Shown one piece after another: positions 2,995 to 18,500 of a stretch of 64,000 nt of DNA. The position numbers and the translations under genes were made by a program. Positions within the stretch are counted from its first letter, which is position 1, and each line of letters starts with the position of its first letter. This DNA is from Candidatus Bathyarchaeota archaeon (GTDB taxonomy: Archaea > Thermoproteota > Bathyarchaeia > Bathyarchaeales > Bathycorpusculaceae). The DNA is taken from the NCBI GenBank assembly GCA_963832745.1, contig CAWHVC010000001.1, positions 224,001 to 288,000 on the forward strand, in the 5' to 3' direction. Below the pieces are notes generated by a model. It ran no database searches. It was not told the origin of the DNA and saw only the letters and a list, made by a program, of their open reading frames with translations.

Positions 2995-3012
2995 CAGAAT
3001 CCCAGCAGTTCC

Positions 3013-3376: not shown

Positions 3377-3865
3377 TCAGGCTACTTGCTTGATTGCCCC
3401 GGCTTTTTGCAACATAATCCGCATAGTTACGCCAGCTACAACAAAAAAGACACCTACAATGATTAGAGCAAGACCGACAATACTTGGTATGCTGGGATAT
3501 GTTAAGGAATATTCTATTGTTTGTCCGTTTGTTGAGCTTAAATTGTTTATGATGACTGCGTATGAGCCAAAGGTTTGGGCGTTAAAGGAGAATTCTACAT
3601 TACTGTAAACTGTTCCACCATTGTAAATGACTTCATTTTGTGGATTTTCTACGTAAACGTTAATGCCTTCGTTTCCGTTAAGAACTGTTACTGCACCTTG
3701 AACTTTATCGCCTGCGCTCAACTCAAGTGGAACGGATAATCCGTCAGAAATGGGCAAGGTTACAGTGTGAGTTTGAGTGGTTGAAACCGTGTATGCAGCA
3801 ATCCCTGAAACCAAAATAGCGAGTCCGATGATTGTCAAGATTAAGCCTAATGTTCTTTTTTGCAT
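3377..3865 (-). CDS. Membrane-anchored protein with emp24/GOLD-like beta domain
   Basis: N- and C-terminal TM; INVYVENP...FSFNA...GSY pattern. Confidence 0.65.
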   Translation of the reverse strand: MQKRTLGLILTIIGLAILVSGIAAYTVSTTQTHTVTLPISDGLSVPLELSAGDKVQGAVTVLNGNEGINVYVENPQNEVIYNGGTVYSNVEFSFNAQTFGSYAVIINNLSSTNGQTIEYSLTYPSIPSIVGLALIIVGVFFVVAGVTMRIMLQKAGAIKQVA

Positions 3866-3982
3866 GATTATCGCTTCGTTTTTGTTTATAAGAGCATTCT
3901 TTTAAGCATTTTGTTACATAAAGGCAACCTTAAATCGAAAACAAAGCTCTTAAAGAATAAACTGCTATCTATCTTGACTGCC

Positions 3983-4330
3983 ATGTCAACCTCAAGTTGC
4001 CCAAAATGCGGAAAACAAGTGCCTGTAGACGCCACATTTTGTCCTCACTGCGGCTTGTTTTTTGCTCAACTTCAACCATTAGCTCAACCCTCGATGGCTA
4101 GGCAGAGAGTTAATACGCATACTTATGGGTGGATAATTATGGCTTTCCTTGTGTCGTTCTTGTGGTTTAAAATAAATAATGTGCTCCTGTTTCCGCTTGG
4201 TTTTATAGGTGGCTTAATTATCATGGGTTTCTCAGGGCATATTGACAAACAAGTTGGTAAGCCTTCCATGGTTATCCTTGGAGTTGCTTTATCGTTTGTG
4301 GGTATGATTATAGGTGCAATCATAAGGTAA
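3983..4330 (+). CDS. Zinc-ribbon membrane protein
   Basis: CPKCG...FCPHCG followed by 3 TM; start taken at the ATG of MSTSS rather than 3860. Confidence 0.75.
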   Translation: MSTSSCPKCGKQVPVDATFCPHCGLFFAQLQPLAQPSMARQRVNTHTYGWIIMAFLVSFLWFKINNVLLFPLGFIGGLIIMGFSGHIDKQVGKPSMVILGVALSFVGMIIGAIIR

Positions 4331-4434
4331 ATTGGCCCAAAAAAGAGTTTTTCAATCAAGCAAGCACTTGAACGCATGCAAAACTATTTTAGTTGATAAC
4401 AGAAAATAGTTAAGAATTAAGGAGTAAGGAGAAA

Positions 4435-4914
4435 TTGCAACTAAATTTGAACGGTTTCCTAGATGGATTGTCTAAAGAAAAGTATCTTGTTTATTTTCTG
4501 TTAGCTTGGGCAGGAGTGCTTTTCTTTTGGGGAATATCTGGTGTGTACTTTAATGTAACGGACCTAAGAAACGCTTATGACGGGATTATGATCCTCACTG
4601 ATTTGCTTGAAATAGGTGCAGGCGCAGTGCTAGCTGTAATCGCCGCCAAACTGTTAATGCCCAGTTTTATGCCAACCATGAAAAGAGAACCATTAGTAAT
4701 CTATTTCCTACTGTTATGGGCTGGCTCATTCTTCTTTAATGGAATAGCCAACATTGCATGGTTTGCACAGTACGGTGTTGACATAGATATCCTGGGTGCT
4801 TTATGCGCATTAGCTGCGGGTGCAGTATTGGCGCTGTTTGCATGGAAACTGCTACAATCACCTTCAGACAATTTAGCAGAAAAACTACGGCAACCAATAA
4901 GCCCAACAGTCTAA
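4435..4914 (+). CDS. Membrane protein with internal two-fold repeat
   Basis: YFLLAWAGVLFFWGI / YFLLLWAGSFFFNGI and GAGAVLA / AAGAVLA repeats; GGAG upstream. Confidence 0.8.
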   Translation: MQLNLNGFLDGLSKEKYLVYFLLAWAGVLFFWGISGVYFNVTDLRNAYDGIMILTDLLEIGAGAVLAVIAAKLLMPSFMPTMKREPLVIYFLLLWAGSFFFNGIANIAWFAQYGVDIDILGALCALAAGAVLALFAWKLLQSPSDNLAEKLRQPISPTV

Positions 4915-4961
4915 ACTCTTCTTTTTCTTTTCATTTTTTTTATCTTAAAATTTTTCTGAAT

Positions 4962-5348
4962 TCAAGGGTTTTCTGACAAAGCCTCTAAAGTGTTCCATAA
5001 CCGTTTGATAGCCTTCATGCCTTCTTTACGTGGAATCCCACCGTAAGCACGTGTAGATTCACTGAATTCCGTTTCAGGTAAATACGCTCGAGCGTCAGGA
5101 TAAAAACTTGGAGGAATATATGTTACCCAACCTTCCGTTTTTGCCAAAACCCCCTCTTCGGTGGGTACAAGAGTTACTTCAAAAAATTTTGAAGCCGAAA
5201 GAATGCCTCTACCCCAGCGGCCATAAACATAGTCAGAGGTGTTTATCAGGATTTTAACTTTGTTTTCGTGGAACCATTTCAGCAATACAGATTTAGCCTG
5301 CCCCACCGTGATGCCTTTGACGAGAATGTCTTTTGTTGTTCGACTCAT
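4962..5348 (-). CDS. Hypothetical protein
   Basis: 128-aa ORF with normal composition. Confidence 0.65.
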   Translation of the reverse strand: MSRTTKDILVKGITVGQAKSVLLKWFHENKVKILINTSDYVYGRWGRGILSASKFFEVTLVPTEEGVLAKTEGWVTYIPPSFYPDARAYLPETEFSESTRAYGGIPRKEGMKAIKRLWNTLEALSENP

Positions 5349-5425
5349 AAAGGTAACCGCTCACGCGTTTCACTATTTAACCCAGATGATTAAAAGCTTC
5401 GTTGATGAACTTGTTAGCGGTTTTT

Positions 5426-5620
5426 CTATTCTTCTTTGGGTTTTTGTGCTTGTGGATAAGTTACGGGGTCATTCACTGATGAGTAAACGTTAAAGAAACT
5501 TCTTTTGCCACATGCTGGACATTGAATATATTTAAGTGGACCAAGATGCACAAACGAATCAAGCGGCATATACGTGTACTCAAAAACGGCGCCACACTTT
5601 TTACATTTGAGCCGAGCCAT
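5426..5620 (-). CDS. Small Zn-finger protein
   Basis: CKKCG...CPACG. Confidence 0.75.
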   Translation of the reverse strand: MARLKCKKCGAVFEYTYMPLDSFVHLGPLKYIQCPACGKRSFFNVYSSVNDPVTYPQAQKPKEE

Positions 5621-5760
5621 ACAATCAAAGTCCCATGCTTTTCATTTGAAGGTTCTCCGTAAAATTTTAACATTTTCCCAAATTCTCAAAATGGTTTGGC
5701 ACTGCTAAAAAATACGCGCTGTTTTAGATAAAAAAAATAAAAGAGGAGTGTTTTACGTGT

Positions 5761-8091
5761 TTAAGGTTTTTTTCTTAACAACAGTAATGTAGCTATAGCG
5801 ACTGCAATTATTACAGCGATGCCTGTACCAATTGTAATAACCGAATTGTCAATTTGCTGGTTTATTTGAGATGTTATTGGTGAGGGTGTTGTAGGTGCTT
5901 CTGTTATTCCAAGTGGAGCCGCGGCGACGGAACTGCCATATGATGCATCTCCAGCAAATGTAGCGTAAATTGTGTATTCTCCTGCAATCTCGGGTTGCCA
6001 CATCTTTTGATACATTCCGGTTAGTCCATCAGAAGTCACTGTGTCAATATGGATCGAGTTTCCGTTTGGATCGATAGCATCAAGCGATACTTGAACACCA
6101 GTTACGGTTGAGGGTATTGGTTTTTGCATGTGAAGGTATTCCATCCATGCACCCATACTTTCAGATGACACACATGGAGTGCCTGGCTGGGCTGGAGAAA
6201 GATCGGTTACTGAACCAGTAATCATTACGCTTTGCCCTAAGGTCGGTGCTGTCAGAGGCATAGAAACTGTGATAGCACTCTTGCCTTTGCCCATTGCATA
6301 CAATTGTAGGTCGTATTCGTCACAGTGCAGTAGGACGCCATCCGCGATAGTTTTAGGGTCACCGGTAGATGCTCCAGATAAGTCAGAGATATTCCATAAT
6401 TGCTGTCCAGTGTATGCGTCTATGCAGTAAAGTCTGTTTCCGATTGGAACTGGGTTGCTTGGACTGTGCTCGCCCGTGCTTTGATAGACTTTTCCGTCAG
6501 CGATGACTGCACCGCCCCACATAGCCCAACCTGGATATGGCGATTCATAGCCAGACGGGGGGGTCTTGTAAACCCATTCTCTTGCGCCTGTTTCACCGTT
6601 AAAGCAGTACAGACCGTCATAGCATGATGCATAGACATTTCCGTATGCGTAGCTCATTCCCGAGTATGACCAGAAGGTTCCCCATGGATAATCGGCTTCT
6701 GCTTCCCATAGTTTAGTGCCTGTAGCCATGTCATAGGCTCGAACTTTTGCGCCATCGCCGGAAGTGAATAGTTTTTCGTCGCCAGCGCATATTGCACCTG
6801 TTTCTCTTTCTTCAGCAGGCAAGGTTCTGTTCCAAAGTACTTGTCCGGTTTCTAAGTCAACACATCCTGACATGCTTGGGTTGTTGGCTATGGTGCCTCC
6901 GTAGCGTCCAGAGATGTATGATATTGCAAAGCCAGGGTCAGAAACATTGTATTTTATCAGTTGCTTGAAGCTTGTTGCTGTGGGCGCGAAACCGAAGACA
7001 GTATTAGAAGCTAAGGGGGCTTCAGTTGTGTTCCAACAGATTAAGCGACCGCCACTTCTGCTGTATACTAATGGGTTTTGAGTGGACCCGTCTAAAGTTC
7101 CGCTAAGTGTGCCGTTTAACCTGTAGACTTCTTGTCCCGTCCATGGATTGTATTTTATGTAGGATGAACCAATCGATACTAGGAACGGCTGGAATTCTAA
7201 GGGTGTTAACCGTTTTTGTTGGAATATAACGCCTGATATTGTAGACATCGACGGATTTACCCAAAGCTCTTCACCTGTTTTGACGTTTACGCAATGCGTC
7301 GCACCTGCTGCGTCTCTATAATAAGTGTACCCGTAAAAGATGATGTTTGTCCGCCCAATTACTGTTGTTGAACCACCACCGTAAGTTAATGATCCATAAT
7401 TTCCGCCGATGATGCCGCCGATTTCTACTTGTTTCTTCCATAGTATGTGAGGTGATTCTGGTCCTTGACTGTATGGGTTAAACCTTGAAGACCCTGCGTC
7501 ATAGCCTGCTTGTACCCAGTCGCCTGCTATTGCACCCCATTCCTTGTTTTCTTCGCGGATTGGACGTTCCCAATACTCTGTTGGTAACGCAACTGGTGCA
7601 ACGCCTGGCACTGGTTCTTCAGTGACGTTGAATGTTAGCACTGGACTTTGGCTTGCCTTGTAGTTTCCGCCTGCCCAATACGCTGATGGGCCTGTGTATG
7701 CGGTTAGATTCTGTGCTGGAAATACTTGTCCTGGAAACACCATTTGATATTTCCATGTGCCAACTTGGTCAGGTACGTATTCAAACCAGTTTGCTGCTGT
7801 TCCCCATGGTTCTGAGTCAATGTTTACTACATCTTGTGTTCCATCAGGTTTTGTGAAAGTTACAATGTAGTGAAAAACTGGTCCGCTTGGAATTGACGGC
7901 GTCATCCATAGGTTAACAAGTAATGTTTGGTCAACACCTATTGGGTCGGGATTGACACTAATGTAGGAAAGAGTTTGAATTTGTTCATCGCCTGAAACTG
8001 ATAGCGTAGATGTAGCCATTATAAGTGTGCTCATCATAAGTATGGCAAAAAGTATTGCTATCGAATTTTTCTTTAAACGTTTTATTTTCAT
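5761..8091 (-). CDS. Secreted, membrane-anchored PQQ-like beta-propeller protein
   Basis: Signal peptide, repeated xxTGxxLW (PQQ-type) blades, C-terminal TM plus RKK. Confidence 0.9.
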   Translation of the reverse strand: MKIKRLKKNSIAILFAILMMSTLIMATSTLSVSGDEQIQTLSYISVNPDPIGVDQTLLVNLWMTPSIPSGPVFHYIVTFTKPDGTQDVVNIDSEPWGTAANWFEYVPDQVGTWKYQMVFPGQVFPAQNLTAYTGPSAYWAGGNYKASQSPVLTFNVTEEPVPGVAPVALPTEYWERPIREENKEWGAIAGDWVQAGYDAGSSRFNPYSQGPESPHILWKKQVEIGGIIGGNYGSLTYGGGSTTVIGRTNIIFYGYTYYRDAAGATHCVNVKTGEELWVNPSMSTISGVIFQQKRLTPLEFQPFLVSIGSSYIKYNPWTGQEVYRLNGTLSGTLDGSTQNPLVYSRSGGRLICWNTTEAPLASNTVFGFAPTATSFKQLIKYNVSDPGFAISYISGRYGGTIANNPSMSGCVDLETGQVLWNRTLPAEERETGAICAGDEKLFTSGDGAKVRAYDMATGTKLWEAEADYPWGTFWSYSGMSYAYGNVYASCYDGLYCFNGETGAREWVYKTPPSGYESPYPGWAMWGGAVIADGKVYQSTGEHSPSNPVPIGNRLYCIDAYTGQQLWNISDLSGASTGDPKTIADGVLLHCDEYDLQLYAMGKGKSAITVSMPLTAPTLGQSVMITGSVTDLSPAQPGTPCVSSESMGAWMEYLHMQKPIPSTVTGVQVSLDAIDPNGNSIHIDTVTSDGLTGMYQKMWQPEIAGEYTIYATFAGDASYGSSVAAAPLGITEAPTTPSPITSQINQQIDNSVITIGTGIAVIIAVAIATLLLLRKKP

Positions 8092-8372
8092 ATTTTCCTC
8101 TCGTTAAATTTCAGATAAATTCAGCTCTCAACCGATTGGGTATTTATATTTTATTTAGTGGGTAAAAAAAAATTAAAAAAAATAACTAAACAAATGAATC
8201 AATGTTGTTTTTTTAGAGCCCAAACTTGAAACCCACTAAACAGAATCAGGCACTCACTCTTATGCCTGCACTAATCACCACTAAAGTGCGCTGAGTGACC
8301 TAAAATAAGATTTAACCGTCGAAGGGGTGATTACATGCTTAGTTAAAAAATAGTTAATGGTGGGGGACAGTT

Positions 8373-8394
8373 GGGGATGATGTCGCCGTCCCAG
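8373..8394 (+). repeat. attL direct repeat (truncated 5' half of the C/D sRNA)
   Basis: Identical to 13273-13294. Confidence 0.9.
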
Positions 8395-8442
8395 CCTTAG
8401 GGCAAAGTAAATTTTATCGATGTTATATGATGTTGTTGAGGT

Positions 8443-8790
8443 CTAGTTATAAGCTTTAGGGGGAATTCTTTCTTTTTCCAATTTGCCAACGAAATATTTC
8501 TCTAAATCATAAATAAACTCGTTAGCATAAGCCATCCAAACATGATGCACGCCTTGGTAAGCTCCGCAATTAGGACAAATATTTCCAAAGTTATGGTCTT
8601 CAAAGACAGTTTCAACGGGTGCAAGATTGCCTCTATATTCTGAATTGTAAACATCTTCAGTCATTGGATATGTTACTTGCATTTTTCCATTGCATTTATA
8701 GCAAGACCAAGGAAATCTATAAACTGAAATTTTCATATTAGTGAGCACCTTTGAAGTAATCTGTTGGTTATTCAATAAATGCTTAATCAT
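8443..8790 (-). CDS. Zn-binding hypothetical protein (element cargo)
   Basis: CYKC...NICPNCG. Confidence 0.7.
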   Translation of the reverse strand: MIKHLLNNQQITSKVLTNMKISVYRFPWSCYKCNGKMQVTYPMTEDVYNSEYRGNLAPVETVFEDHNFGNICPNCGAYQGVHHVWMAYANEFIYDLEKYFVGKLEKERIPPKAYN

Positions 8791-8899
8791 TAATTAGAGC
8801 TGATAATGGAGTACCCAGAAAATAAGCTTAGAATATTCAGTTGGCGGCAACCCTTGTGGTTGCTCGCTTCCAACAAATCCTTCTAAATACTAAGCGAAC

Positions 8900-9538
8900 C
8901 TATTTTCCGCCAACGTCTTCTCGAAAAGCATCCTCAAGAAATGAGTCAACCCTTTTTATGTTAGCAGTTATCTGACTTGTCTGTTCCTTAAAATCAGCAA
9001 ACAATTCAGGATATTTTTTAACGATTTCTATAAGTGTCTTTATCTGCTCCATGCTCGTTTCCTTTAGCAATAGGAAACCAAAAATGGCTGAAACATCAGT
9101 TTTATCAATTTTGCCTTTAGCAAGAATTGCCTGATAACCCATTTTAAACGGTTCATATCCAAGTATTGATGACATTTCAACAACACATTGAAGTTGCCTA
9201 TTTTCTGGATAGATTTCAAGTATTCTGTTTGAGAGGACTTTTTGATTGGCTTCTTCAGCAAGGGCAATATAAACTCCTGCGGTTGTCAGCCAAAAAAGTT
9301 GGTGGTCTCTGCCACGATATTCTTCTAATTTTATTTCGGTTATGATGCCTTTTTCTTGCATTGAATCGAAAGCGTTCCAAACTGACTTGTAATGTCCGTT
9401 AATAATTTTATTTAAGCTGTATTTTGACTTAGGAGGGTTTTCTGCTAAGCATAGGAGTATGCGTTTTTGTAACGGCGGAAGGAACTGGCTTTCGGTAATA
9501 GCTTTTGATATATGTTCTTCCCCTTGTGGTTGAGCCAT
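8900..9538 (-). CDS. Winged-helix DNA-binding protein, divergent from rep
   Basis: N-terminal MarR/PadR-like wHTH (SKYSLNK..HYKSVWNAFDSMQEKGII...FWLTTAG). Confidence 0.7.
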   Translation of the reverse strand: MAQPQGEEHISKAITESQFLPPLQKRILLCLAENPPKSKYSLNKIINGHYKSVWNAFDSMQEKGIITEIKLEEYRGRDHQLFWLTTAGVYIALAEEANQKVLSNRILEIYPENRQLQCVVEMSSILGYEPFKMGYQAILAKGKIDKTDVSAIFGFLLLKETSMEQIKTLIEIVKKYPELFADFKEQTSQITANIKRVDSFLEDAFREDVGGK

Positions 9539-9611
9539 AGTATGTACTCCGATTTTAACTATGTCATACGGTGCCTATATTAAATTTTGCCAATTTATGC
9601 CTCGATGAAAT

Positions 9612-10613
9612 ATGATTAACATTCAATCAACAGAAAAAAACGCAGTATCACTACATCGAGAAATCAAGAACGAGTTTTGGAGTTACGGCGATTATGTATT
9701 AGTGGGGCATGGAAAGCAAACAAACTCCGATTGTGGAAAATTCGATAAATTCATGGGGTGCCTAAATTATAAGGCACATAATCAAACACGTTTCTTCAAT
9801 GAAACCCTAGACAAAGACTCCGTTTTTGTTAAGCCAATTTATCATTCCTGCGACAAACCAACGTGTCCTGTGTGTTTTAAGTATGGATGGGCTGTAAGAG
9901 AAGCTTACCGAATGGAAGAACGTCTAAAAATAGCGTCTAACCGTTTTGGACTTCCAGTTGAGCACATTGTAGCAAGCATTAGAAGCGAAGATTATGGACT
10001 AAGCCTTGACGCATTACGGAAAAAAGCCATAAAACTAATGTCAAATCGCGGAATTATTGGCGGTTCTATAATTTTTCACGGTTTCCGATATGCCAACCGA
10101 AAAGAAGCAAGGATAAAAAGTGTTCCTTTTGGGTGGCGATGGAGTCCACATTTTCACGTTCTTGGCTTTGTTGGTGGGGAAGGTTATGGTAAATGCCGAA
10201 AATGTAAAGGCGGTGACTGTTATGCTTGCAAAGGCTTTGAAGGCGCAACAAGGCGCGAAAACAAAAAAGACGGCTGGCTCGTCAAAGTCCTAGACAAACG
10301 CAAAACTGTAGGCGGAACATGCTGGTATCAGCTAAATCATTGCTCGATTCAAAGAGGCTCAAAAAAATCTCATGCAACAACATGGTTTGGCGCTTGCTCA
10401 TATCGCAAACTCGAAATAATCAACGGTGAAAAAGGCGTTGGAATACAGCATAAATGCCCCATCTGTGACTCAGAATTAGTCCATATACGCTATTTAGGAC
10501 AAGAAAAGTTCTTGCTTACTCGGCGTGGCGAAATCCGATGTATGTTTGCTGAGGATGGAACACCTCTCTGGGAAATAGCGCATGAAGGTGAATGTCATGG
10601 AGGCTGTGGATAA
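9612..10613 (+). CDS. HUH-superfamily rolling-circle replication initiator (Rep)
   Basis: Motif 1-like EHIVAS, HUH motif SPHFHVLG, catalytic-Tyr motif YQLNH, N-terminal SCDKPTCPVC Zn site. Confidence 0.85.
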   Translation: MINIQSTEKNAVSLHREIKNEFWSYGDYVLVGHGKQTNSDCGKFDKFMGCLNYKAHNQTRFFNETLDKDSVFVKPIYHSCDKPTCPVCFKYGWAVREAYRMEERLKIASNRFGLPVEHIVASIRSEDYGLSLDALRKKAIKLMSNRGIIGGSIIFHGFRYANRKEARIKSVPFGWRWSPHFHVLGFVGGEGYGKCRKCKGGDCYACKGFEGATRRENKKDGWLVKVLDKRKTVGGTCWYQLNHCSIQRGSKKSHATTWFGACSYRKLEIINGEKGVGIQHKCPICDSELVHIRYLGQEKFLLTRRGEIRCMFAEDGTPLWEIAHEGECHGGCG

Positions 10614-10924
10614 TGATTCGCCAGCAAAGAAGACGTTTAGAGCGCCAATGGAGCAAGATAAAGGTGGGCGAAATATGTACAGACTTCATTGAAAAAAACA
10701 ACCTTTTCACACCTCCTCACATTCTTTCCTTCCAAGCGGTGAAATTATCTGAGTATTTAGTTGGCGTGTATAATGTTGGGCTCTTTAATTTCAAGAAAGA
10801 CAAAGGGCATGGAGAATTCTTCACGACCTGCATGTTTGTTGAAGGTTGCTTAAGAAATCTGCACTCTGAACGGTTGGGTTTCATTCAAGAGTTTGATTTG
10901 TGGGAGGTGGACGAAATCGATTGA
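10592..10924 (+). CDS. Hypothetical protein overlapping the rep 3' end
   Basis: Coupled to the rep stop (TAATG at 10611-10615 suggests a start at 10613). Confidence 0.55.
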   Translation: MSWRLWIMIRQQRRRLERQWSKIKVGEICTDFIEKNNLFTPPHILSFQAVKLSEYLVGVYNVGLFNFKKDKGHGEFFTTCMFVEGCLRNLHSERLGFIQEFDLWEVDEID

Positions 10925-10945
10925 TGCTTTGGCGCATCGTTTGGC

Positions 10946-11006
10946 TACTTGCGGAAAGTTCGGCAAGCGATAAGCGGAGCGCACCGCGCAAGCGGGCGCG
11001 AACTTT
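10946..11006. other. GC-rich nested hairpins, candidate replication origin (sso/dso)
   Basis: AAAGTTCG(10955)/CGAACTTT(10999) enclosing GCGC-A-CCGC-GCAA-GCGG-GCGC; GC island in AT-rich surroundings after the rep operon. Confidence 0.45.
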
Positions 11007-12328
11007 AGTAAAAAAATTGGTTATCTCTTAATCAATTGATTTAGTCAACTTCTTCTTTTCCATCTTTTTTGTGATATAATCAGTTATACCTTCAACTAAA
11101 TCATTAACAAATATTCTTTCATCATCTGAAACACTTGTTCCAAAATGCTCACCGAAGTTAGGATAGTATGTTATATGTTATTTTAAGAAGGTCAACTATA
11201 CTGATTAATTATCAGTTCTCATCAGTGCTATCATCAATGAGAAATTTGAATGTGTTTTTTCAACATCTATTGCTTTACTTTTAGTGGACCCAAGAAATTT
11301 CTATCTATGTTGTAGCCCTTTTTCTGAACTAAGCTTAATTGCAGAATTATTGTTAATGATTTTTGCGCTTAACCGTCAGTAATCAAACATAGATTTCATA
11401 AATGTCAGAGTCAATCCAGCAATCAATTCATTGCAGCAACTTAAACTTTGAAGACCATATCAGAAAGAATGCTTTAAATTATATTGCTCCACTTGCCTAA
11501 GGCAATTATTACTCACGCAAATTTTTTTTCGATTATTTCTTATCAATCTTGTTTCATATGGAAATGGCGATTTTTGGCCCAGTTTGTGTTAATTCCAAAT
11601 ATCCAAGTGAATTCCCATGCAATTCTATAAAATATTACCGTCAGTAATGACATGTAGGGTAAAATCAAGGTTGTACATTCAAAAAATAGCCTTTTCCATT
11701 ATAATTATTTGAAACGTGATCCAAGGTGCGAATGATGCCTCCAATTCAAAAAATTATTCACGGTTCATTTGCGACTTCAAGTTATCCTTCCCAATTAAAA
11801 GAGACTTGAAAGATAGACGAGTAATTTAGTAGCCAGGCGTAATCATGAGTAGGCGATATTTTTTTGCTATTTGGTCAAGTTTCGACAACAAGAACTTTTA
11901 AATTTAATCGTTAAAATAATAAATTTAAGCTAGGAGATCTGAACTTACCCGTAGGTTCTATTTCTTTAAGAGGGATAGGTTTGAATTGGTTGAAAAGCTA
12001 TCGGCATTACCTTTAGTCAATTAACGTTGATTCTATCAAATTTTTAATATATCTGTGGTATCAGAGAATATGACGGACATAGAGGCAGTGAAGACAGCTA
12101 AAGTGTAGTAGTGACTGAGGGTGAGAGACTGAGTGACTGACAGACAGAGGGTGACATGACATTATTAACGGGGATTTTGCGCATATATTACGTCATGGTT
12201 AGTAGAGAAAATCAAGAATTTGCGGGCTTTTTTAAAATACCATAACAGTAAAATTGATTTTGTTGATTGCTTCTTGAATTCGCCATCTAAAGCAGGATAT
12301 AGCATCACCAACGGGTATGGCATCTTGC

Positions 12329-13213
12329 TTAATTGCTTGTTGTACTTGTTTCGTCTGTTGTGCATTTTAGTGGTATCCACTGGATTTCTTGGTCTTCAGT
12401 AATGTATTTTTCAGTGCTTCTTGCGTCTTTGTGTCCAAGTATTTTTTTAACTTGCAAAAAGTTGTGTCCTGATAGTTTGTATTCTCTTGTGCCTTTTCGT
12501 CTGCGGAAATCATAGAGTTGCACTTGTTTTAGTTCGGGCATGTTGTATTTTTCTGCAAGGTTGTTTCTTGCATGTCTGTAACATGTGCTTAAGGTGTCTG
12601 AGGATGTTGGAAAAATTATGCTTTGAGCGTTTAGGTTTTCACGTTTGATATACCTTTTTAGCAGTTCTAAGGTGTCCTGCTTTAGTTTTCCTTCTCTTCC
12701 GATTGTATGTTTTGCGCCTGTAAGGTCAGTTCTTCCTGTTACTAAATCAATGTCTTGAACCTTTAGCCATGTTAATTCGATAGGGCGTTCCCCTAAATCT
12801 CGAGACATCTTTAATTTAAGGTTCAAAGGAAATTTAACGTGATTTATAATAAATTGCACTAATTCCTCTTTTGGTGCCCTACGCTTCTTATCTTGGCGCT
12901 GATAAAAGGGCTTATTCCATGATAACCCTAAAGATTGAATCGCTATATTATAGGATTCTATCAGGTTTTCCTTTCTGGCGTTAGATACATTCTTGTTTGC
13001 TATGTATAGTTTGACTTCTTGAGGGTTGCTTGTGTTGCAGTTTTTCTGTAAATGTTTAAGTTCCTTTACTACTCTTTTGATGGTTGTTGGTTCATAGGCT
13101 TCTTTTTTCATCCAAATAATAACGTTAGCTAAGTTAAGGTTTCCAATATCTTTAGGGTCTTGGGTTTCCTGTTGAAGTTGTTTTAAGAGCTCTTTTACGA
13201 GTTTAGGGTTCAT
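12329..13213 (-). CDS. Tyrosine recombinase / integrase
   Basis: GERPIEL (Arg I), K in GAKH, YDFRR (HxxR variant), LGHK and TEKY catalytic Tyr; C-terminal tail appears frameshifted. Confidence 0.92.
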   Translation of the reverse strand: MNPKLVKELLKQLQQETQDPKDIGNLNLANVIIWMKKEAYEPTTIKRVVKELKHLQKNCNTSNPQEVKLYIANKNVSNARKENLIESYNIAIQSLGLSWNKPFYQRQDKKRRAPKEELVQFIINHVKFPLNLKLKMSRDLGERPIELTWLKVQDIDLVTGRTDLTGAKHTIGREGKLKQDTLELLKRYIKRENLNAQSIIFPTSSDTLSTCYRHARNNLAEKYNMPELKQVQLYDFRRRKGTREYKLSGHNFLQVKKILGHKDARSTEKYITEDQEIQWIPLKCTTDETSTTSN

Positions 13214-13269
13214 TCATTTTCATCTTTCCTTTACCAAAACCCTAAGATACTGGGACGATGTTTCAATCG

Positions 13270-13337
13270 TTGGGGGATGATGTCGCCGTCCCAGTCGGAT
13301 TGCGAAAGATGACGAGCTTATGACGGACAGACCCCAA
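13270..13337 (+). ncRNA. Box C/D guide sRNA (overlaps attR)
   Basis: Terminal stem TTGGGG/CCCCAA; C ATGATGT 13277-83; 12-nt guide; D' CGGA 13296-99; TT-GCGA-AA loop; C' ATGACGA 13309-15; 12-nt guide; D CAGA 13328-31; box deviations are mutually compensatory. Confidence 0.85.
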
Positions 13338-13616
13338 GCGTCAACATCAAAATTTTTAAAATTTTAAAATAGTGTTCCTGCACCGAAAATGTAAGAAATC
13401 ACAATGGTTACGCAGAGGGAAATGCAGAGGAAAGGGCAGGCTTTTCTGGAAAAAAACGCTGTGTAATAAACCTCAAACTCACGTTTTAAATGGCGTAGGC
13501 ATATGTGGGCGAGCCTATATTCCATTAAAGCCTCCTCCTTCTCCTCAAGAAAAGTTGGGCTTTTAGAGTTTATAAAGGGTATTTCAAACGTGGAATACCC
13601 TAATGGAGAGAAGAGG

Positions 13617-14036
13617 TTAGCGTGACATGCAGTCAAGCATTAAGGTGCATGTGAAGCATTCTTCAGGAACAGGCGTGTCTTTTGGACGTTTTTTAAGGTA
13701 ACCAGCGTAATGAGCGCACACTGACGGAGCAACTGGAACCTTGCTGACCGATTCGGTTTTAAGCTCGGGCTGGGACTGAATTTCAGGTTCAAGTTTTGCC
13801 TCGATTGGCGCTGCTTCCTGATGAGGTTGAACGGTTTTTTCTTCTTTTTTAAGTTCAACTTTTGATAGGCATGCGGGGCATGCGTAGTATGCTTCGGCGA
13901 CGCCGGGGGAGTTGTTTACGGCGAATATGGGTTTGGTGAAGCGTTTGCCGCAGCGGATGCACATGTAGTTGACACTGGTTTGTTGAGTTTCTGTTGTGGT
14001 TGTTTCGAGTGTTAGTATGCTGCGGCTGTGTTCCAT
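13617..14036 (-). CDS. Double Zn-finger protein (paralog of 36939..37316)
   Basis: CxxC..YYACPxC and CxHxxGxL...PxECxxCxxxLDCM. Confidence 0.8.
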   Translation of the reverse strand: MEHSRSILTLETTTTETQQTSVNYMCIRCGKRFTKPIFAVNNSPGVAEAYYACPACLSKVELKKEEKTVQPHQEAAPIEAKLEPEIQSQPELKTESVSKVPVAPSVCAHYAGYLKKRPKDTPVPEECFTCTLMLDCMSR

Positions 14037-14201
14037 TGTTTTCCCTCTGTTAACGATTCCGCTTAAGTATTAATATTTAATAAACCTTGTTGCTTTTGTG
14101 TTCAACATTGAGACAGTTTTGTGTTGCTCTTTTTTGTGTTTGGAGGCTTTTTTGAGGTTTTTTGTTGTTTGGTGTTTTACAGTTTGAACCAACAAGTTTA
14201 A

Positions 14202-14233
14202 ATGAAATATTATTCATATGAATTATTATTCAT
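14202..14233 (+). promoter_or_regulatory. Probable ArsR/SmtB operator
   Basis: Tandem imperfect palindromes ATGAAATATTATTCAT-ATGAATTATTATTCAT between a TTTAAA box and the ArsR start. Confidence 0.7.
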
Positions 14234-14242
14234 CAATAAAGG

Positions 14243-14581
14243 ATGGCGACAAAAACGAAAAAAACCCTAACAGAAATCTGCCACCGCTTCTTCACAAACC
14301 TAGCAAACCCCACACGCCTCGCCGCCCTCGAACAACTCATGGAAAAACCCCAAACCGTAACCGAACTCGCACAAACCCTAGGACAAGAACAAAGCATGAT
14401 ATCCCACAACCTAAAACCCTTACTCCAATGCAACATCATCACCATTCAAAAACAAGGAAAAAAACACATCTACACAGCCAACAAAGAAACCCTAACACCC
14501 ATCTTTGAAGCCATCCAAAACCACGCCCAAAAATTCTGTCCAACCGGCGGAAACTGCCTAAAAGGAGACAAACAAAATTGA
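14243..14581 (+). CDS. ArsR/SmtB family metalloregulator
   Basis: LANPTRL...TVTELA...QSMISHNL HTH; C-terminal His/Cys (HAQKFCPTGGNC). Confidence 0.92.
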   Translation: MATKTKKTLTEICHRFFTNLANPTRLAALEQLMEKPQTVTELAQTLGQEQSMISHNLKPLLQCNIITIQKQGKKHIYTANKETLTPIFEAIQNHAQKFCPTGGNCLKGDKQN

Positions 14582-15240
14582 AAAGAAAAATTGTAAACAT
14601 AAACGAAAACCTCTGCAACGGATGCGGACAATGCATACCCAACTGCGTAGAGGGCGCACTCCAAATAGTGAATGGCAAGGCAAAAATCCTTAAAGAAACG
14701 TACTGCGATGGTCTTGGCGCATGCTTAGGTCATTGCCCACAAGGAGCAATCACAATAACAGAACGGGAAGCAGAAGAATTTAGTCAAGAAGAAGTGCATG
14801 AATACCAAAAAAGCAAACAAGCCGCCTTAACCTCACCTGCAAGCAATCCTGCCATTACAAACGCGACGCCAAAGAAGCCTCAGTGGCCAGTAAAAATCGA
14901 CCTTGTACCACCCAAAGCACCATTCTTCGAAAACGCTGACATCTTACTCGCCGCCGATTGCGCACCAGTAGCCCTTAAAAACTTCCATGAACTCACTGAG
15001 GGAAAACGGGTTATTATCGGGTGCCCAAAATTTAATGACGCCAAAGCCTACGCAGCTAAACTGACAGAAATCCTAAAACAAAATAACGTTGCCAGCGTCA
15101 CCGTGGTTCACATGGAAGTACCATGCTGCACTGGACTTAAATGGGCAGTAAACAAAGCCTTAGAAGGTTCAGGCAAAAAAGTGCTTACACACGAAGTTGA
15201 GGTTAAAGTTGGAGGTGAAACTGTTGAGCTCAAATGGTAA
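14578..15240 (+). CDS. 4Fe-4S dicluster ferredoxin-domain protein
   Basis: CNGCGQCIPNC, CDGLGACLGHCP, QWPV, AADC, GCPK and MEVPCC motifs. Confidence 0.92.
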   Translation: MKRKIVNINENLCNGCGQCIPNCVEGALQIVNGKAKILKETYCDGLGACLGHCPQGAITITEREAEEFSQEEVHEYQKSKQAALTSPASNPAITNATPKKPQWPVKIDLVPPKAPFFENADILLAADCAPVALKNFHELTEGKRVIIGCPKFNDAKAYAAKLTEILKQNNVASVTVVHMEVPCCTGLKWAVNKALEGSGKKVLTHEVEVKVGGETVELKW

Positions 15241-15475
15241 AATAGAAAAAAATCCAGAAACATGCCCTGGACTGCGCGATTTTCTGCAGCCAAAACCATC
15301 ATACACTAACTGTCACGTTTGCGGCGCAGAACTTGAAGTATGGAGTGATGAAGATAAAACAACTTGCCCATCATGCGGAGCTGAATGGAAACGCCCAGAC
15401 GCTAATGCTGCTTGCCTTTCATATTGCCAGTATGCTGACAAGTGCAGGGCAATCATAGCGGAAAGAAAAAAGTAA
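15224..15475 (+). CDS. Small Cys-rich Zn/Fe-binding protein
   Basis: CPG, CHVCG..E.WSDE...CPSCG, CxxxCxxxxxC; TTG start after GGAGGTGA. Confidence 0.8.
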   Translation: MSSNGKIEKNPETCPGLRDFLQPKPSYTNCHVCGAELEVWSDEDKTTCPSCGAEWKRPDANAACLSYCQYADKCRAIIAERKK

Positions 15476-15577
15476 ACTTTCCTCTCTGCTTTTTTGTTTG
15501 TTGCATTTTTTATGTACACATTTATTTGTTACACTTTTTGCATAATTTACTTTCAGAAAATATAAAATGGTGCCGAT

Positions 15578-18500
15578 TTGTTGAGTTCTTCTAGGGAAAT
15601 CCGAGTATTACATGTGGACGACGAGAAAGCATTCTTAGACCTTGCAAAAACCATCCTCTCCGACGAAGGCCCATTCAATATTGAAACAGCAACCTCGGTA
15701 GACACAGCCTTCACCAAGCTCCAAAACAACAACTTTGACATCATCATCTCTGATTATGACATGCCCCAAAAAAACGGGTTAGACTTTTTAAAACTACTAC
15801 GAGAAAAAGGCTACGCAACACCGTTTATCCTGTTCACCGGCAAAGGTCGAGAGGAAATTGTTGTTCAAGCCCTAAACATGGGTGTTGACCGCTACATAAG
15901 CAAACATGGTGAACCCAAAACCGTCTATACCGAACTATCTGTTTGCATCCGCCAGTTGCACGAAAAAATTATGGCTCAAAAACTGCTTTGGGAAAGCGAA
16001 GAACGCTTCAAACAAATGGTAACAAACAGTAAAGACCTGATAATGCTCACAGGAGCAAACGGCGTAATAATTTATTTGAGCCCTTCATGCAAGGACATTT
16101 TAGGTTACGAACCTATCGAATTAATCGGGAAAATCCCATGGATCACCCACCCTGACGATTTAGAGCGGGTTCAAAAGATATTCCAGTTAGCATTAACAAC
16201 CCAATTAAACGATTCAGCTGAATACCGCATAGTAACCAAACGTGGAGAAACCAAATGGGTCAACCATTCCTTCTCACAAATCATAGAAAATGGCAAGATA
16301 AAACAGATAGTCAGCACAGTAAAAGACATCACAGAAGCCAAAATTGCCCAAGCTAAGCTTATAGAAAGCGAGGAACGTTTCCGTTTAGTTGTTGAAAACT
16401 CACCGATTATGATGGCAAACCTAAACAGGAATTTGCAGTATACGTGGATTCATAACCCTTTGATAAACCCTTTATCTTCAGAGAATGTTTTGGGCAAGCA
16501 CTTCGGCGAAGCAGTAGATATGGATGATTGCGAGGAAATCCGGGAAGCCCTGCATGAATTAATAGTTACGGGGGGTTCAATAAGACGAGAAGCCACAATT
16601 CACATTAACAAGGAAACCTGTTTTCTTGAATGCTACTTTGAAGCTGCCAAGAACCAAAAAGGCGAAGTCACAGGAATACGGTACACGGCATATGATGTAA
16701 CACAAAGGAGACAAATGGCTGCTCAACTGAAATCTTTGGAGGAACGCTGGAATTTCGCTTTAGAAGGCGCTGGTCAGGGAGTTTGGGACTTTAATGTTCA
16801 AACAAACAGTGTGTTCTTATCTCGAAAATGGAAAAAAATCCTTGACTATGAAGAACATGAATTCACGAATGATTTTAAAGAATGGCAAAATCGGTTACAT
16901 CCCGAGGATAAAGAAAGCGCAATTGAAGATATAATGAATTATTGCGCTGGAAAAACGTCTTCGTACGTTAAAGAGTACCGTTTACTCGCAAAAGATGGCA
17001 CTTATAAATGGATTTTTTCTCAAGGGAACATAATGGCCCGAACCACTAACGGCAAGCCTTCCCGTGTGATTGGAACCATAATGGATATAACCAAACATAA
17101 ACAATCAGAAAACGCTATAAAAGAATCTGAAGCAAAATTTTCTGCCGCTTTCAACTCAAGCGGTGCAGCAATGACTATAACACGACTTGAAGATGGACTA
17201 ATTTTGGAAGTGAATGATTGCTTCCTCGAGACTTTTGGCTACACACGTGAAGAAGTTATAGGAAAAACTGCACAGATGCTTCATTTATATGCTGACATGA
17301 ATGAACGCCAAAAAATAGTTGAACTAACCTTAAAGAGCAATTCAGTAGTTAACCGTGAAGTTAAAGGATTAAAGAAAGATAAAACCGAAGTTACCGCGCT
17401 TTTCTCAACAAAAATGGTTTACCTTAAAGGTCAAAAGAACCTCGTAACAACGCTAATTGATATTTCAAGCCTTAAAAAAATCGAAAACTCTCTTTACCTC
17501 AGACAGAAAGAATTAGAAAACTTAATTGCAATGGCACCAGACTCAGTAACCGTTATTGATTTAGAAGGAAAAATAATTGAATGCAATGAACTTTCTTGTA
17601 AAACCTTCGGTTACACACGAGAGGAGATGATTGGGTCGTATGGAGCCAATTTCGTCGTAGAAAGAGATCGTAATACATTGGAAAATGAGATGAGAAACGC
17701 GGTTTGTGACAAGCAGGTGCATACAAGCATTTTTACAGGCAAATGCAGGAACGGTAACGAAATCGCCGTGGAAGGCTCAGTTAAAGCAACTTTTGATAAT
17801 AATGGAAGCCCTACAGGTTTTATCGCAATAATCAGAGACATTACTGAACGAAATCTTGCAGAACGGAAATTGCAAGAGAGCGAAGAAAGATACCGGTTTA
17901 TGGCTGAACATGCTCAGGACATTATCACAGTTACAGATGTAAGAGGGAATTTTCTTTTTGTTTCGCCATCAATTAAGCGCTTGGCAGGTTTTACACCTGA
18001 TGAGCTTAAAGGCAAAAAAGGTATGCTAACATGCATTCACGTTGATGATTTGCCTCTTCTCACTTCAAAAATCCAGGAAGCCATGACAAATAATGTTGCA
18101 CAAGTTGAGGTTCGATTCTTAACTAAATGCGGTAGCTTCATTTGGCTTGAGACGAACATAAGTACAGTCAAGGATACGGCTGGTGAAACCAGATTTATCA
18201 GCATAAGCCGAGACATGACTCAACGTAGAATTGACCGTGAAGAAAGAGACCAAGCCCTTGCCAAAGCAGAGTTGCTCCTTGAAAAGTTAAGTGTTGTAGG
18301 CGGGTTTGTCAGGCATGATGTGAGAAACAAGCTTGCAGCAATCACAAGCACGTTATATTTAAGCAAAAAATACGCCAACGATAATCAAAACATGCTAAAA
18401 CAGGTAGAGCAAATTGGATATGCTGCGGACAACATTGAACATATTCTGGAGTTTGCTCAAACTTACGAGGCAGTGGGAAGCAGAGGGTTATCATGGTGTG

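Follow-up and report, generated by a model that had tools for sequence, protein, structure and literature searches.

Positions 8395-13272 of the window (the whole 64,000-nt stretch of DNA analyzed here) are probably occupied by a cryptic, integrated plasmid-like element that sits in a gene for a box C/D sRNA with a guide to the 23S P-loop, and that carries a candidate Rep protein for rolling-circle replication. The evidence comes from a perfect direct repeat, the anatomy of the segment between its copies, conservation of the sRNA among relatives of the host, an empty site in a congener, linkage of integrase genes to the sRNA, and homology of the Rep protein. An earlier note on this DNA had proposed a cryptic element targeting an sRNA gene, and that interpretation holds up overall, except as regards the mobility of the copy studied.

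Boundaries of the element

A 22-bp sequence, GGGGATGATGTCGCCGTCCCAG, is present as a perfect direct repeat at positions 8373-8394 and 13273-13294, a spacing of 4900. These are the two forward copies in the 3.02-Mb genome, which has no reverse copy and none with the control pattern; with up to three mismatches allowed, the window still gives two matches, and two or more were found in 0 of 100 shuffles. We give practically no weight to the idea that the repeat arose by chance or through misassembly: metagenome contigs often break at the 22-bp core, but, apart from the result of the shuffles, insertions at the same sRNA gene, orthologous or related, occur in independent assemblies, including one complete genome.

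As the earlier note had described, the repeat consists of GGGG from the terminal stem of the sRNA, the C box AUGAUGU, and 11 nt of the 12-nt first guide. Its left copy (attL core, 8373-8394, forward strand) lies on the side of the host promoter and holds the sRNA stem, the C box, and 11 nt of the D' guide, after which element DNA begins (CCTTAGGGCAAAGT). This copy had been said to break off before the D' box, and the sequence found there instead is CCTTAGGGC, which is element DNA. The right copy (attR core, 13273-13294, forward strand) is the 5' part of an intact sRNA gene. Because TTGGGG stands directly 5' of the left copy, joining of the two flanks would yield TTGGGG...CCCCAA, the same sRNA that the note had rebuilt by excision in silico.

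Like an integrated element, the segment has a direct repeat of its target and a terminal integrase gene, and relatives show the empty site. The junction of core and CCTTAGGG seen at attL recurs in seven of eight partial copies in congeners and in 71 metagenome contigs. Among 13 distinct attL/attR pairs, mismatches fall solely at core positions 1, 2, 4, 6, and 12, with none at positions 13-22, and in every pair identity stops after position 22. Since the attL copies stop exactly there, the element carries no more of the sRNA than its 5' 22 bp. An attP-like order (int, core, CCTTAGGG) is present in contigs L053 and L080 and partly in L048 and L091, an arrangement to which a tandem insertion would look identical. 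The data gave no direct indication of excision, of a free circular form, or of an unoccupied site within the source population, and this counts against the reading as an integrated element.

The sRNA and its predicted target

The gene at the right junction (13270-13337, forward strand) specifies a predicted 68-nt box C/D sRNA that contains the right repeat copy as its 5' part. It is made up of a stem, UUGGGG(G), at 13270-13276; the C box AUGAUGU at 13277-13283; the D' guide at 13284-13295; the D' box CGGA at 13296-13299; the C' box AUGACGA at 13309-13315; a 12-nt D guide at 13316-13327; the D box CAGA at 13328-13331; and the closing stem, CCCCAA, at 13332-13337. The two internal boxes, D' and C', are present, and the guides are ~12 nt long. 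On folding (z = -2.36) the terminal stem is formed, and the genome has a fibrillarin gene (317 bits). The C box matches RUGAUGA at six of seven positions (elsewhere in the order, other families have AUGAUGA), and the D box matches CUGA at three of four; the GA dinucleotides for sheared pairs are retained. Both CAGA as D box and CGGA as D' box depart from the consensus.

We collected 46 distinct full sRNA sequences of 61-65 nt. The C' box is RTGANGA in 46/46, and the D box with its stem (CAGA+CCCC) is likewise found in 46/46; CAGACCCC was also the filter by which the sequences were collected. The D' box is CTGA in 39, CCGA in five, and CGGA in two (CGGA being the form in the genome studied); the D' guide is 12 nt long, and the D guide measures 12 nt in 24 sequences and 10-14 nt in 43. 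The boxes and the near-invariant D' guide are conserved, whereas the spacer and the D guide vary. With the 23S rRNA of the same genome, at GCUGGGGCGGC, the D' guide forms 11 contiguous bp (nine Watson-Crick and two G-U), and the nucleotide at N+5 is the second G of the P-loop GGGG. Such pairing by itself is not rare: an equally good one somewhere in the rRNAs was obtained for 129 of 2000 shuffled guides, and 368 of 2000 shuffles did as well as the D guide.

Archaeal C/D families in Rfam are lineage-specific. No Rfam family was reached at its gathering score, with snR67 (19.2 against a threshold of 55) and SNORD43 (17.5 against 45) scoring best and sR22, sR60, and sR30 giving sub-threshold matches of 11-13 bits; given that lineage specificity, the missing match bears on those families and not on the C/D class. 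The five best matches on the strand are all C/D families, and snR67 aligns to the sRNA in the same register as the pairing of D' guide and P-loop. In yeast, snR67 guides modification of G2619, which corresponds to E. coli Gm2251, according to the relevant part of PMC11121408, and a passage of PMC4644070 gives predicted archaeal guides to the G2251-equivalent position for three organisms. The sRNA resembles these guides, as far as those passages describe them, in its P-loop pairing register and in the box that follows the guide, and differs from the snR67 Rfam family, of which it is not a member by score, in its D box CAGA. As judged from complementarity, the D' guide would direct 2'-O-methylation of the 23S P-loop G equivalent to E. 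coli G2251. The earlier note had argued that the guide is constrained by complementarity to rRNA, and its near-invariance in the 46 sequences, the 11-bp pairing, and the snR67 register agree with this.

It is improbable that the target is instead conserved as a DNA site, for example a regulatory region or a promoter, and merely resembles a C/D sRNA. The absence of an Rfam match at threshold, a non-canonical D box in all copies, and the weak pairing statistic would suit such a site, but it would leave aside C, D', C', and D boxes that follow in order, guides spaced at 12 nt, a terminal stem, conservation of boxes and D' guide alongside a variable spacer and D guide, a pairing register shared with snR67, whose target nucleotide is universally modified, and best Rfam matches confined to C/D families. 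Further, a TATA-like element stands at a fixed place ~27 nt upstream: in 49 distinct upstream regions, consisting of host or element DNA, positions -30 to -26 relative to the sRNA are A/T in 84-100%.

A gene of the host chromosome

Conservation of the sRNA extends through the family and the order of the host. It is present, at ~65 nt, in 28 of 40 relatives. At the level of the class, 164 of 401 genomes contain a 19-mer from it; for the family the count is 90 of 103, mostly with a single copy per genome, and for the genus 38 of 40. In the congener G006 (locus L009) the sRNA is intact between homologues of window positions 1379-2126 and 14578-14805, and there is no integrase; this is the empty site that the earlier note had proposed to look for in related genomes. 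G017 likewise has the sRNA beside homologues of the window's flanking genes and without int. By this comparison the target is a chromosomal host gene and not one borne by the element, because G006 carries it intact between the same flanking-gene homologues without an integrase. An sRNA that derives from the elements and spreads with them, so that the "host gene" would not be the host's, is a very unlikely alternative. The upstream DNA of many sRNA copies, promoter included, does resemble the int-proximal end of the elements, and some genomes, for example G003, have two sRNA loci; against this stand the two genomes without int, the predominantly single-copy occurrence in 90 of 103 family genomes, and the attL copies that end exactly at position 22.

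The integrase and its landing site

The element's integrase gene (12329-13213, reverse strand) encodes 294 aa and exceeds the Pfam cut-off for PF00589 (35 against 27.1 bits), with a match to PHROG 216 "integrase" at 2.9e-12. In alignment A2 of the family, R143, K168, H214/R216, H261, and Y270 are invariant. An SSV-type (suicidal) integrase was considered and ruled out, since int is a single ORF that stays intact across the junction, 60 bp from a core that lies outside it; by its sequence and position, the protein is classed as a classical, non-suicidal tyrosine integrase.

Homologues of the integrase adjoin the sRNA in seven congeners. The comparison covered 27 relatives from species genomes, 44-90% identical. 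In 25 of them a full sRNA stands in divergent orientation 23-85 bp from the mapped int start (in three of the 25, the tblastn match starts 52 nt beyond the sRNA), and the remaining two are cut by contig ends. The earlier note had suggested asking whether the att sites of integrase homologues are also C/D sRNAs, and this is the case at 25 of the 27 loci. At 13 of the 25 loci a second, truncated sRNA copy lies 3.3-7.5 kb away on the int side, and in L135, L136, and L144 the repeat variants follow the local sRNA variant.

A candidate rolling-circle initiator

The 333-aa Rep candidate (Rep333; 9612-10613, forward strand) has three Cys clusters, an HUH motif (H180-F-H182), and a candidate catalytic tyrosine, Y239; H180, H182, and Y239 are invariant across 42 sequences of its family. 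No match was found in Pfam, PHROG, NCBIfam, PDB sequences, or plasmid and phage collections. In profile-profile comparison with hhalign, Rep333 aligned to the SNJ1 RepA family at 98.35% (E=1e-14, 198 columns), with the Zn finger, HUH, and Tyr motifs in register (RPHFHxIG and YxLSH in the RepA family), and to a single RepA sequence at 83.9%. For pGT5 Rep75 the figure was 1.5%. From this remote homology, Rep333 is a candidate HUH-type rolling-circle initiator distantly related to SNJ1 RepA, and the earlier description of a rolling-circle element rests on the same alignment, in which HUH and Tyr are kept.

Wang et al. 2018b are said to have reported that the SNJ1 RepA family is homologous to IS91-family transposases, and through that kinship Rep333 might itself move the element, as a rolling-circle transposase of the IS91-like kind, and leave the integrase a secondary role. 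We regard this as highly improbable: a direct repeat of the target with an integrase beside it marks site-specific recombination, the same junctions occur at the 18 Int loci (of 27) that lack a Rep of the Rep333 family (nine have one), and no member among the 42 matches the Pfam Y2_Tnp or IS91 Zn-finger families. In the AY048850 annotation, SNJ1 RepA is the rolling-circle initiator of a haloarchaeal sphaerolipovirus, and a passage of PMC6563490 describes a gene homologous to it in the thaumarchaeal cryptic element NitAQ6f-E2. Rep333 and RepA share an N-terminal CxxC Zn finger, HUH, and Tyr in the same order and belong to small archaeal replicons, some of them integrated; they differ in length (333 and 481 aa) and are 22% identical over aligned columns, and Rep333 falls in its own family, with 858 representatives at E<=1e-3, all unnamed.

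Proposed mechanism and known systems

We propose that attP comprises 22 bp from the sRNA 5' end (stem, C box, 11 guide nt) and, just upstream and next to the divergent int, the element's TATA-like promoter. This would be the octamer CTAAGATA at 13242-13249, which is borne by the element and lies ~26 nt upstream of the sRNA 5' end and ~32 nt upstream of the int start codon, a candidate promoter shared by both genes. The integrase, by its presumed recombination chemistry, would have inserted the element into the 5' part of the chromosomal sRNA gene, with a crossover probably within core positions 13-22 (GCCGTCCCAG). Recombination would rebuild a complete sRNA at attR, then fed by element DNA, and leave the host promoter with a truncated 5' sRNA fragment at attL; an excised circle may replicate by the rolling-circle mode through the HUH/Tyr Rep related to SNJ1 RepA.

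A close parallel is the pTN3 type of Thermococcales, which integrates into the 5' half of tRNA genes, as summarized in a section of PMC8371274. As far as that section goes, the two systems are alike in that a tyrosine integrase uses the 5' part of a gene for a small stable RNA as att, integration leaves that gene whole again, and the restored gene is expressed from element DNA next to the integrase promoter, which for the present element is a proposal; they are unlike in that the target here is a C/D methylation guide and not a tRNA, and the host belongs to Bathyarchaeia. As in pNOB8-type, classical archaeal integrases, attP lies outside int, which is whole after integration (sections of PMC8371274 and PMC7253208). 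The targets that the review's relevant section gives for archaeal integrases are tRNA genes, intergenic regions, and protein genes, and the term "sRNA" has no occurrence in the review text (PMC8371274). In the literature searched, no description was found of C/D sRNA genes as att sites, including for archaeal integrases, in line with the earlier note, which knew of no such integrase family.

Bacterial phages and islands integrate into non-tRNA small RNA genes such as tmRNA. For instance, phiEf11 integrates into the 4.5S RNA gene ffs, according to PMC12540744, and ncRNAs account for 13.5% of RNA targets in the figures excerpted from PMC13626063. In these cases, as those excerpts present them, a conserved small RNA gene likewise serves as attB and a short block of identity regenerates it; they concern another domain of life and another class of RNA, and no C/D-type guide is reported in the excerpts.

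Age and state of the insertion

An orthologous copy occupies the same locus in G041, of the same genus, lacking attL, the two left ORFs, and about two-thirds of Rep. Because it is orthologous, the insertion is older than the split of the two species and the copy studied here may be a fossil; this copy is probably old and weakly mobile or immobile. A stronger version holds that it is a dead, vertically inherited remnant of one ancient integration, in which only the sRNA, and perhaps an element-derived promoter, functions today, and we rate this at slightly less than an even chance. DNA alignment with L124, L119, and L120 reveals a 1-nt frameshift near codon 285 of the integrase (~12350-12365), which replaces the conserved C-terminal ~25 residues and leaves a protein of 294 aa against 314-315 aa in most of the 120 family members listed. 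The element DNA shared with the partly deleted G041 copy is 86-88% identical, a divergence similar to that of the flanks (81-83%). Between the 110-aa ORF and the integrase there is 1.2 kb with no ORF of at least 50 aa, including an A+T-rich stretch (11003-12164, 30-35% GC) that has no similarity to other elements and is possibly decayed cargo. Further, short remnants, with 0.5-1.9 kb between both copies, exist in G007, G019, G002, and six of 71 metagenome loci. On the other side, the Rep ORF, the perfect 22-bp repeats, and the integrase catalytic residues, Tyr270 included, are intact, and the Int family as a whole looks active, with varied cargo around a common int-attP module in elements of 3.3-7.5 kb. 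The remnant reading bears solely on the present state of one copy, not on the identity of the element.

A more speculative extension of the integrated-element reading, which we hold to be rather doubtful, is that the Int family has specialized on one gene, the guide for the universally conserved P-loop methylation (Gm2251 equivalent), and that at each integration a promoter supplied by the element and shared with int takes the place of the guide's own and makes guide expression dependent on the element, which would thereby work like an addiction. If so, decay of elements would fix element-derived promoters, and sometimes int remnants, before the host gene, as in G041; after repeated rounds, most "host" sRNA promoters in the family would be fossil attP arms; and the fragment left at attL, which has promoter, C box, and guide but lacks a D' box, might act as a half-guide competing for RNP proteins or the rRNA target.

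Other genes and segments

The earlier note had described a 4.9-kb module of Rep, wHTH, and tyrosine integrase, of which Rep and integrase stand and the wHTH assignment is weak. The 212-aa ORF in question (8900-9538, reverse strand) is a possible winged-helix DNA-binding protein, with weak wHTH-type matches (PadR, E=0.08; ArnR, E=0.044); nothing below E=0.89 was found among PDB sequences, and homologues are present in two other elements, L130 (49% identity) and L095 (40%). A 115-aa ORF (8443-8790, reverse strand) has CxxC pairs and is Zn-ribbon-like, with all family matches sub-threshold. A search against PHROGs named no capsid or conjugation proteins in the element, in keeping with the note, to which none were visible. 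The 110-aa ORF (10592-10924, forward strand) accompanies Rep in related elements, and its tblastn matches adjoin Rep or Int in L126, L129, L124, L120, L130, and L023/L125. Just beyond it, a G+C-rich conserved segment of ~75 nt with a hairpin (10929-11002), conceivably a replication origin or a regulatory RNA, is embedded in A+T-rich DNA and is 76-88% identical in L124, L129, L119/L024, L125/L023, and L126, between flanks that are unalignable.

An element bounded by a 22-bp core

The element is bracketed by a direct repeat with the core sequence GGGGATGATGTCGCCGTCCCAG, which occurs at 8373-8394 (attL) and at 13273-13294 (attR) with a spacing of 4900 bp. These are the only two matches in the window at ≤3 mismatches (two matches were obtained in 0/100 shuffles) and the only two copies in the 3.02-Mb, 5-contig genome, in which a control pattern occurs 0 times, confirming the repeat reported in the earlier note from the sequence alone. 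There are no further degenerate att copies upstream at ≤6 mismatches, and no CRISPR-spacer-like or second copies of the element elsewhere in the genome.

Between the two cores (8395-13272) lie, on the minus strand, a Cys-rich ORF of 115 aa (8443-8790) and an ORF of 212 aa (8900-9538); next come a 333-aa ORF (9612-10613), referred to here as Rep or Rep333; a 110-aa ORF (10592-10924); 1.2 kb of A+T-rich DNA lacking any ORF of ≥50 aa; and a tyrosine integrase of 294 aa (12329-13213, minus strand; PF00589, 35 bits versus a cut-off of 27.1), the sole protein of the element recognized with PHROGs. The winged-helix gene that had been placed between the repeats would be the 212-aa ORF, whose winged-helix-type matches are weak. 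The integrase gene (int) is uninterrupted, with the core 60 bp beyond it. In the SSV type, int is split on integration; an integrase of this type is ruled out by the unsplit gene and its classical arrangement. The sequence CCTTAGGGC was also considered as a repeated arm site and rejected, with 9 window matches versus 7.7 expected. Directly past the 110-aa ORF is a G+C-rich segment of ~75 nt with a hairpin (10929-11002) that is 76%-88% identical across six related elements, in which the DNA on either side does not align. One of the six is the element of G010, a congener, which has no Rep of the Rep333 family. Candidate roles for the segment are replication origin, terminator, and small RNA.

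The target gene encodes a predicted box C/D sRNA

We conclude that 13270-13337, at the right junction, is a predicted box C/D sRNA gene with off-consensus D boxes. It can be read as a 5' stem, UUGGGG(G) (13270-13276); a C box, AUGAUGU (13277-13283); a 12-nt D' guide, CGCCGUCCCAGU (13284-13295); a D' box, CGGA (13296-13299); a 9-nt spacer, UUGCGAAAG (13300-13308); a C' box, AUGACGA (13309-13315); a 12-nt D guide, GCUUAUGACGGA (13316-13327); a D box, CAGA (13328-13331); and a 3' stem, CCCCAA (13332-13337). Among 46 distinct full sequences collected from the loci of relatives, positions 1-23 are near-invariant, the C' box is RTGANGA in 46/46, the D' box is CTGA in 39, CCGA in five and CGGA in two, and the spacer and D guide are variable. 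The D box and stem read CAGACCCC in all 46, the same string being the filter that defined a full copy. Within this set, the CGGA form of the D' box is limited to the genome studied here (G000) and its sister G041; the Rfam consensus of yeast snR67 likewise has CGGA at this position. The genome has a fibrillarin gene (317 bits). A tRNA fragment as the target was rejected, given that ARAGORN finds 0 tRNAs in the window. An RNase P RNA at 34727-35030 marks the window as archaeal.

The sRNA is widespread: the ~65-nt stretch was found in 28 of the 40 relatives searched (21/24 in the genus), including other families of the order. A core 19-mer, allowing ≤2 mismatches, occurs in 164/401 genomes of the class, 90/103 of the family and 38/40 of the genus, mostly as a single copy per genome.

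The earlier note had treated the sRNA as a gene of the host, and the alternative that it is derived from the element is contradicted by the relative G006 (locus L009), in which an intact sRNA lies between a homologue of 1379-2126 and a homologue of 14578-14805. In G017, the sRNA is ~600 bp from the homologue of 1379-2126, and in G024 it immediately precedes homologues of 13624-14698. A tblastn search with the window's integrase yields no integrase match at any of these three sRNA loci. Thus, the sRNA gene belongs to the host and can be free of an element. In the window, ~6.2 kb (2140-8372) lies between attL and the gene found ~0.6-0.75 kb upstream of the sRNA in G006 and G017; this interval encodes, on the minus strand, a 776-aa protein with PQQ/beta-propeller repeats (5761-8091). 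This stretch is common to G000 and G041, unlike the spacing in G006 and G017, and the sRNA neighborhood is therefore variable within the genus.

Related integrases occupy the same site

With the window's integrase as the tblastn query, homologues were found directly upstream of the sRNA in seven congeners: G008 (90% identity), G010 (71%), G004 (63%), G023 (frameshifted), and, as fragments, G019, G022, and G015. Species-representative genomes, scanned with an alignment of integrases, yielded 27 relatives at 44%-90% identity, 26 of them labeled as a Bathyarchaeia, Bathyarchaeota, or Crenarchaeota archaeon and one as a "Methanocella" MAG contig. At 25 of these 27 loci, a full sRNA lies 23-85 bp from the mapped int start in divergent orientation (in three of the 25, the tblastn alignment starts 52 nt beyond the sRNA); at the other two, the core is at the very end of the contig or int is at a contig edge with an attL-type copy only. 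The check suggested in the earlier note, whether the att sites of integrase homologues are also C/D sRNAs, thus has a positive outcome.

A second, truncated sRNA copy is located 3.3-7.5 kb away on the int side at 13/25 loci. Nine of the truncated copies are followed by CCTTAGGG-like DNA and four (loci L122, L135, L136, and L138) by other sequence, and therefore the family appears to include sub-types of the attP right arm. At L138, identity extends through TCTGAT past the truncated copy. At L135, L136, and L144, the local sRNA is off-consensus and both copies show the local variant. In the class scan, core pairs ≤13 kb apart on the same contig occur in at least 19 genomes among the matches listed (66 matches are unlisted), and the exact junction of GATGATGTCGCCGTCCCAG with CCTTAGGG was found in 71 metagenome contigs; IMG/VR contained no match to the junction, no integrase relative, and no match to the Rep pattern. 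Across 13 distinct attL/attR pairs, differences are limited to core positions 1, 2, 4, 6, and 12, with none at 13-22, and identity stops after position 22 in 13/13, a pattern that places strand exchange most likely within GCCGTCCCAG. The int-attP module is the constant part of these elements: G000 and G008 share 88.6% identity over ~950 bp, and the rest does not align. The integrase profile had no match to PDB sequences at 0.01.

Several individual loci deserve mention. L130, on the "Methanocella sp." MAG contig, carries a 5.8-kb element (integrase 61%, Rep 86%, 212-aa ORF 49%) with the same sRNA and attL at its ends, and represents either mis-binning or transfer outside Bathyarchaeia. L026 (G003:C1:1097000-1110500) has a tandem pair of elements at one sRNA, where the second junction shares 31 bp with the sRNA, reaching through the D' box, instead of 22, and the second element encodes an HTH_17 protein and an integrase C-terminal fragment of only 103 aa; G003 has another, unoccupied sRNA locus (L027). 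G000 itself encodes three distant tyrosine recombinases with 26%-34% identity to that of the element (G000:C1:142898-143744, C2:87877-88593, and C5:11485-12210), two within ~200 bp of tRNA-Leu(tag) and tRNA-His and the third 2.7 kb from tRNA-Val.

A target class apparently new to archaeal integrases

Site-specific integrases favor small RNA genes that evolve slowly. The mechanism here is conventional in that it combines a tyrosine integrase with a conserved small RNA gene; novelty lies in the class of target and in the Rep family, and the finding is real and wider than the earlier note could see. The accessible text of a 2021 review of archaeal tyrosine recombinases places archaeal targets in tRNA genes, protein genes, and intergenic regions, without using the term "sRNA" (PMC8371274), and the portion of a thaumarchaeal survey available to us counts 39 tRNA, 15 intergenic, and 14 protein-gene att sites (PMC6563490), among which some of the 15 "intergenic" sites could be unannotated sRNA genes. 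A Pyrobaculum C/D sRNA study makes no mention of integration ("integrat" is absent), the accessible portions of PMC10848311 and PMC11697101 contain nothing on integration at C/D sRNA genes, and no description of a C/D sRNA gene as an integrase att site was found in the literature searched. In bacteria, small RNA genes other than those for tRNA are known to serve as integration sites, according to the available parts of PMC12540744 and PMC13626063.

A predicted methylation-guide RNA gene is a repeated integration target across a family of uncultured archaea abundant in sediment and soil, and this class of target is missed by pipelines that seek tRNA-flanked islands. The core followed by CCTTAGGG provides a simple marker for small integrated elements in Bathyarchaeia. 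Further, the compact int-attP module, together with a 22-bp landing site that most genomes of the family possess, could possibly serve as an integrative vector for organisms without genetic tools.

Predicted rRNA target of the guide

The D' guide pairs with GCUGGGGCGGC in the organism's own 23S rRNA through 11 contiguous bp (nine Watson-Crick and two G-U), with the second G of a 23S GGGG opposite guide position 5 from the D' box. A pairing this good is matched somewhere in the rRNAs by 129/2000 shuffled guides; it is not rare alone, and its weight comes from where in 23S it lands. The top Rfam match of the sRNA is yeast snR67, below threshold at 19.2 bits versus 55, and the snR67 guide and D' guide align in the same register, before the CGGA box. 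The remaining sub-threshold Rfam matches on the same strand (SNORD43, sR22, sR60, and sR30) are all C/D families. As described in the accessible part of PMC11121408, snR67 guides methylation at yeast G2619, which corresponds to E. coli Gm2251; this modification is among the few in rRNA that are conserved universally. Three archaea have predicted guides for the equivalent of G2251 (PMC4644070, available portion). The E. coli numbering used here derives from the snR67 register and the same part of PMC11121408, direct alignment having matched only two partial 23S records. We therefore regard the sRNA as a probable guide, in Bathyarchaeia, for this universally conserved modification. The D guide pairs with ACCGUCGUGAGA in 23S over 10 bp, which was equaled by 368/2000 shuffles, so no target is claimed. 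The 16S (G000:C5:524515-526004) and 23S (C5:643790-646560) genes are unlinked, ~118 kb apart, and the 23S gene runs to the contig end, with the first ~245 model positions missing.

Proposed consequences of integration for the sRNA promoter

Since what the two copies share is the 5' portion of the gene, attR fuses element DNA to the sRNA body. For a transcript starting at the sRNA stem, an archaeal TATA box is expected at -30 to -26, and these positions before the core are 84%-100% A/T in 49 distinct upstream regions. A TATA-like octamer (13242-13249) carried by the element has the usual spacing to the sRNA start; the int start codon, on the opposite strand, is ~32 nt away from it, and we infer that the sRNA at attR uses the element's putative promoter. 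The closest described parallel is the pTN3 type, which, in the accessible text of PMC8371274, integrates in the 5' half of tRNA genes, with the integrase promoter driving the rebuilt tRNA gene. Some 16-23 nt before the sRNA, CTGGGACG (13250-13257) is the reverse complement of the end of the D' guide (CGTCCCAG). TGGGAC (≤1 mismatch) occurs at -30 to -8 in 33/49 distinct upstream regions, in both host and element DNA; CTGGGACG may serve as a recombinase site, as part of the promoter, or as a leader masking the guide.

A candidate rolling-circle initiator

Rep333 has no match in Pfam, PHROGs, NCBIfam, or PADLOC, its profile has none among PDB sequences (best E=0.71), and tblastn found none in plasmid and phage collections at E≤1. 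Its relatives comprise 858 representatives at E≤1e-3, all unnamed and many on 1-8-kb contigs. In a 42-member alignment, H180 and H182 (HFH), Y239, and three Cys clusters are invariant, and Pfam at E≤0.01 gives nothing for these members but four scattered single matches. Profile comparison with the SNJ1 RepA family (29 sequences), whose SNJ1 RepA record is annotated as a rolling-circle replication initiation protein, gives a probability of 98.35% (E=1e-14, 198 columns), and the alignment covers the CxxC finger, the EHI..S.P strand, the HUH motif, and the Tyr motif; the values for the lone RepA sequence and for pGT5 Rep75 are 83.9% and 1.5%. Given the RepA profile match and the HUH and Tyr motifs, rolling-circle replication initiator is a reasonable provisional assignment for Rep333, and it links a large protein family without a name to such initiators. 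A Rep333-family gene is present at 9/27 integrase loci, and the others have different cargo. For instance, the G008 element encodes a 303-aa protein with an N-terminal HEPN domain (L024 5791-6702; 28.7 bits), a possible toxin or defense cargo that has no match in PADLOC.

State of this copy and remnants of others

Compared with its homologues, the window's int has a one-base frameshift near codon 285 (about 12270-12365), and the conserved tail QQAIK.D...VG...F.KP can be recovered in a different frame, where it overlaps a 71-aa ORF (12165-12380). The family length is 314-315 aa in most of the 120 listed members of 386 clusters (E≤1e-10). The complete genome G041, of the same genus, has a single core copy (its locus and that of G390 in the class scan have identical coordinates). 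Its left flank reaches the equivalent of 8215 and then joins equivalents of 10400-10922, 10929-11002, and 12377-16005, with attL, both left ORFs, and about two thirds of Rep lost. The G041 copy is an ortholog of the window's element, and the insertion is therefore older than the split of the two species. Identity between G000 and G041 is 86%-88% in the element and 81%-83% in the flanks, that is, divergence is about equal. Whether the window's copy can still move is doubtful; the element family as a whole looks active, because cargo and sizes vary. Only 0.5-1.9 kb separates the attL-type copy from the full sRNA at L025, L035, and L037, and the same very short interval is seen at the metagenome loci L063, L071, L081, L088, L103, and L111, all of which look like deletion remnants of elements.
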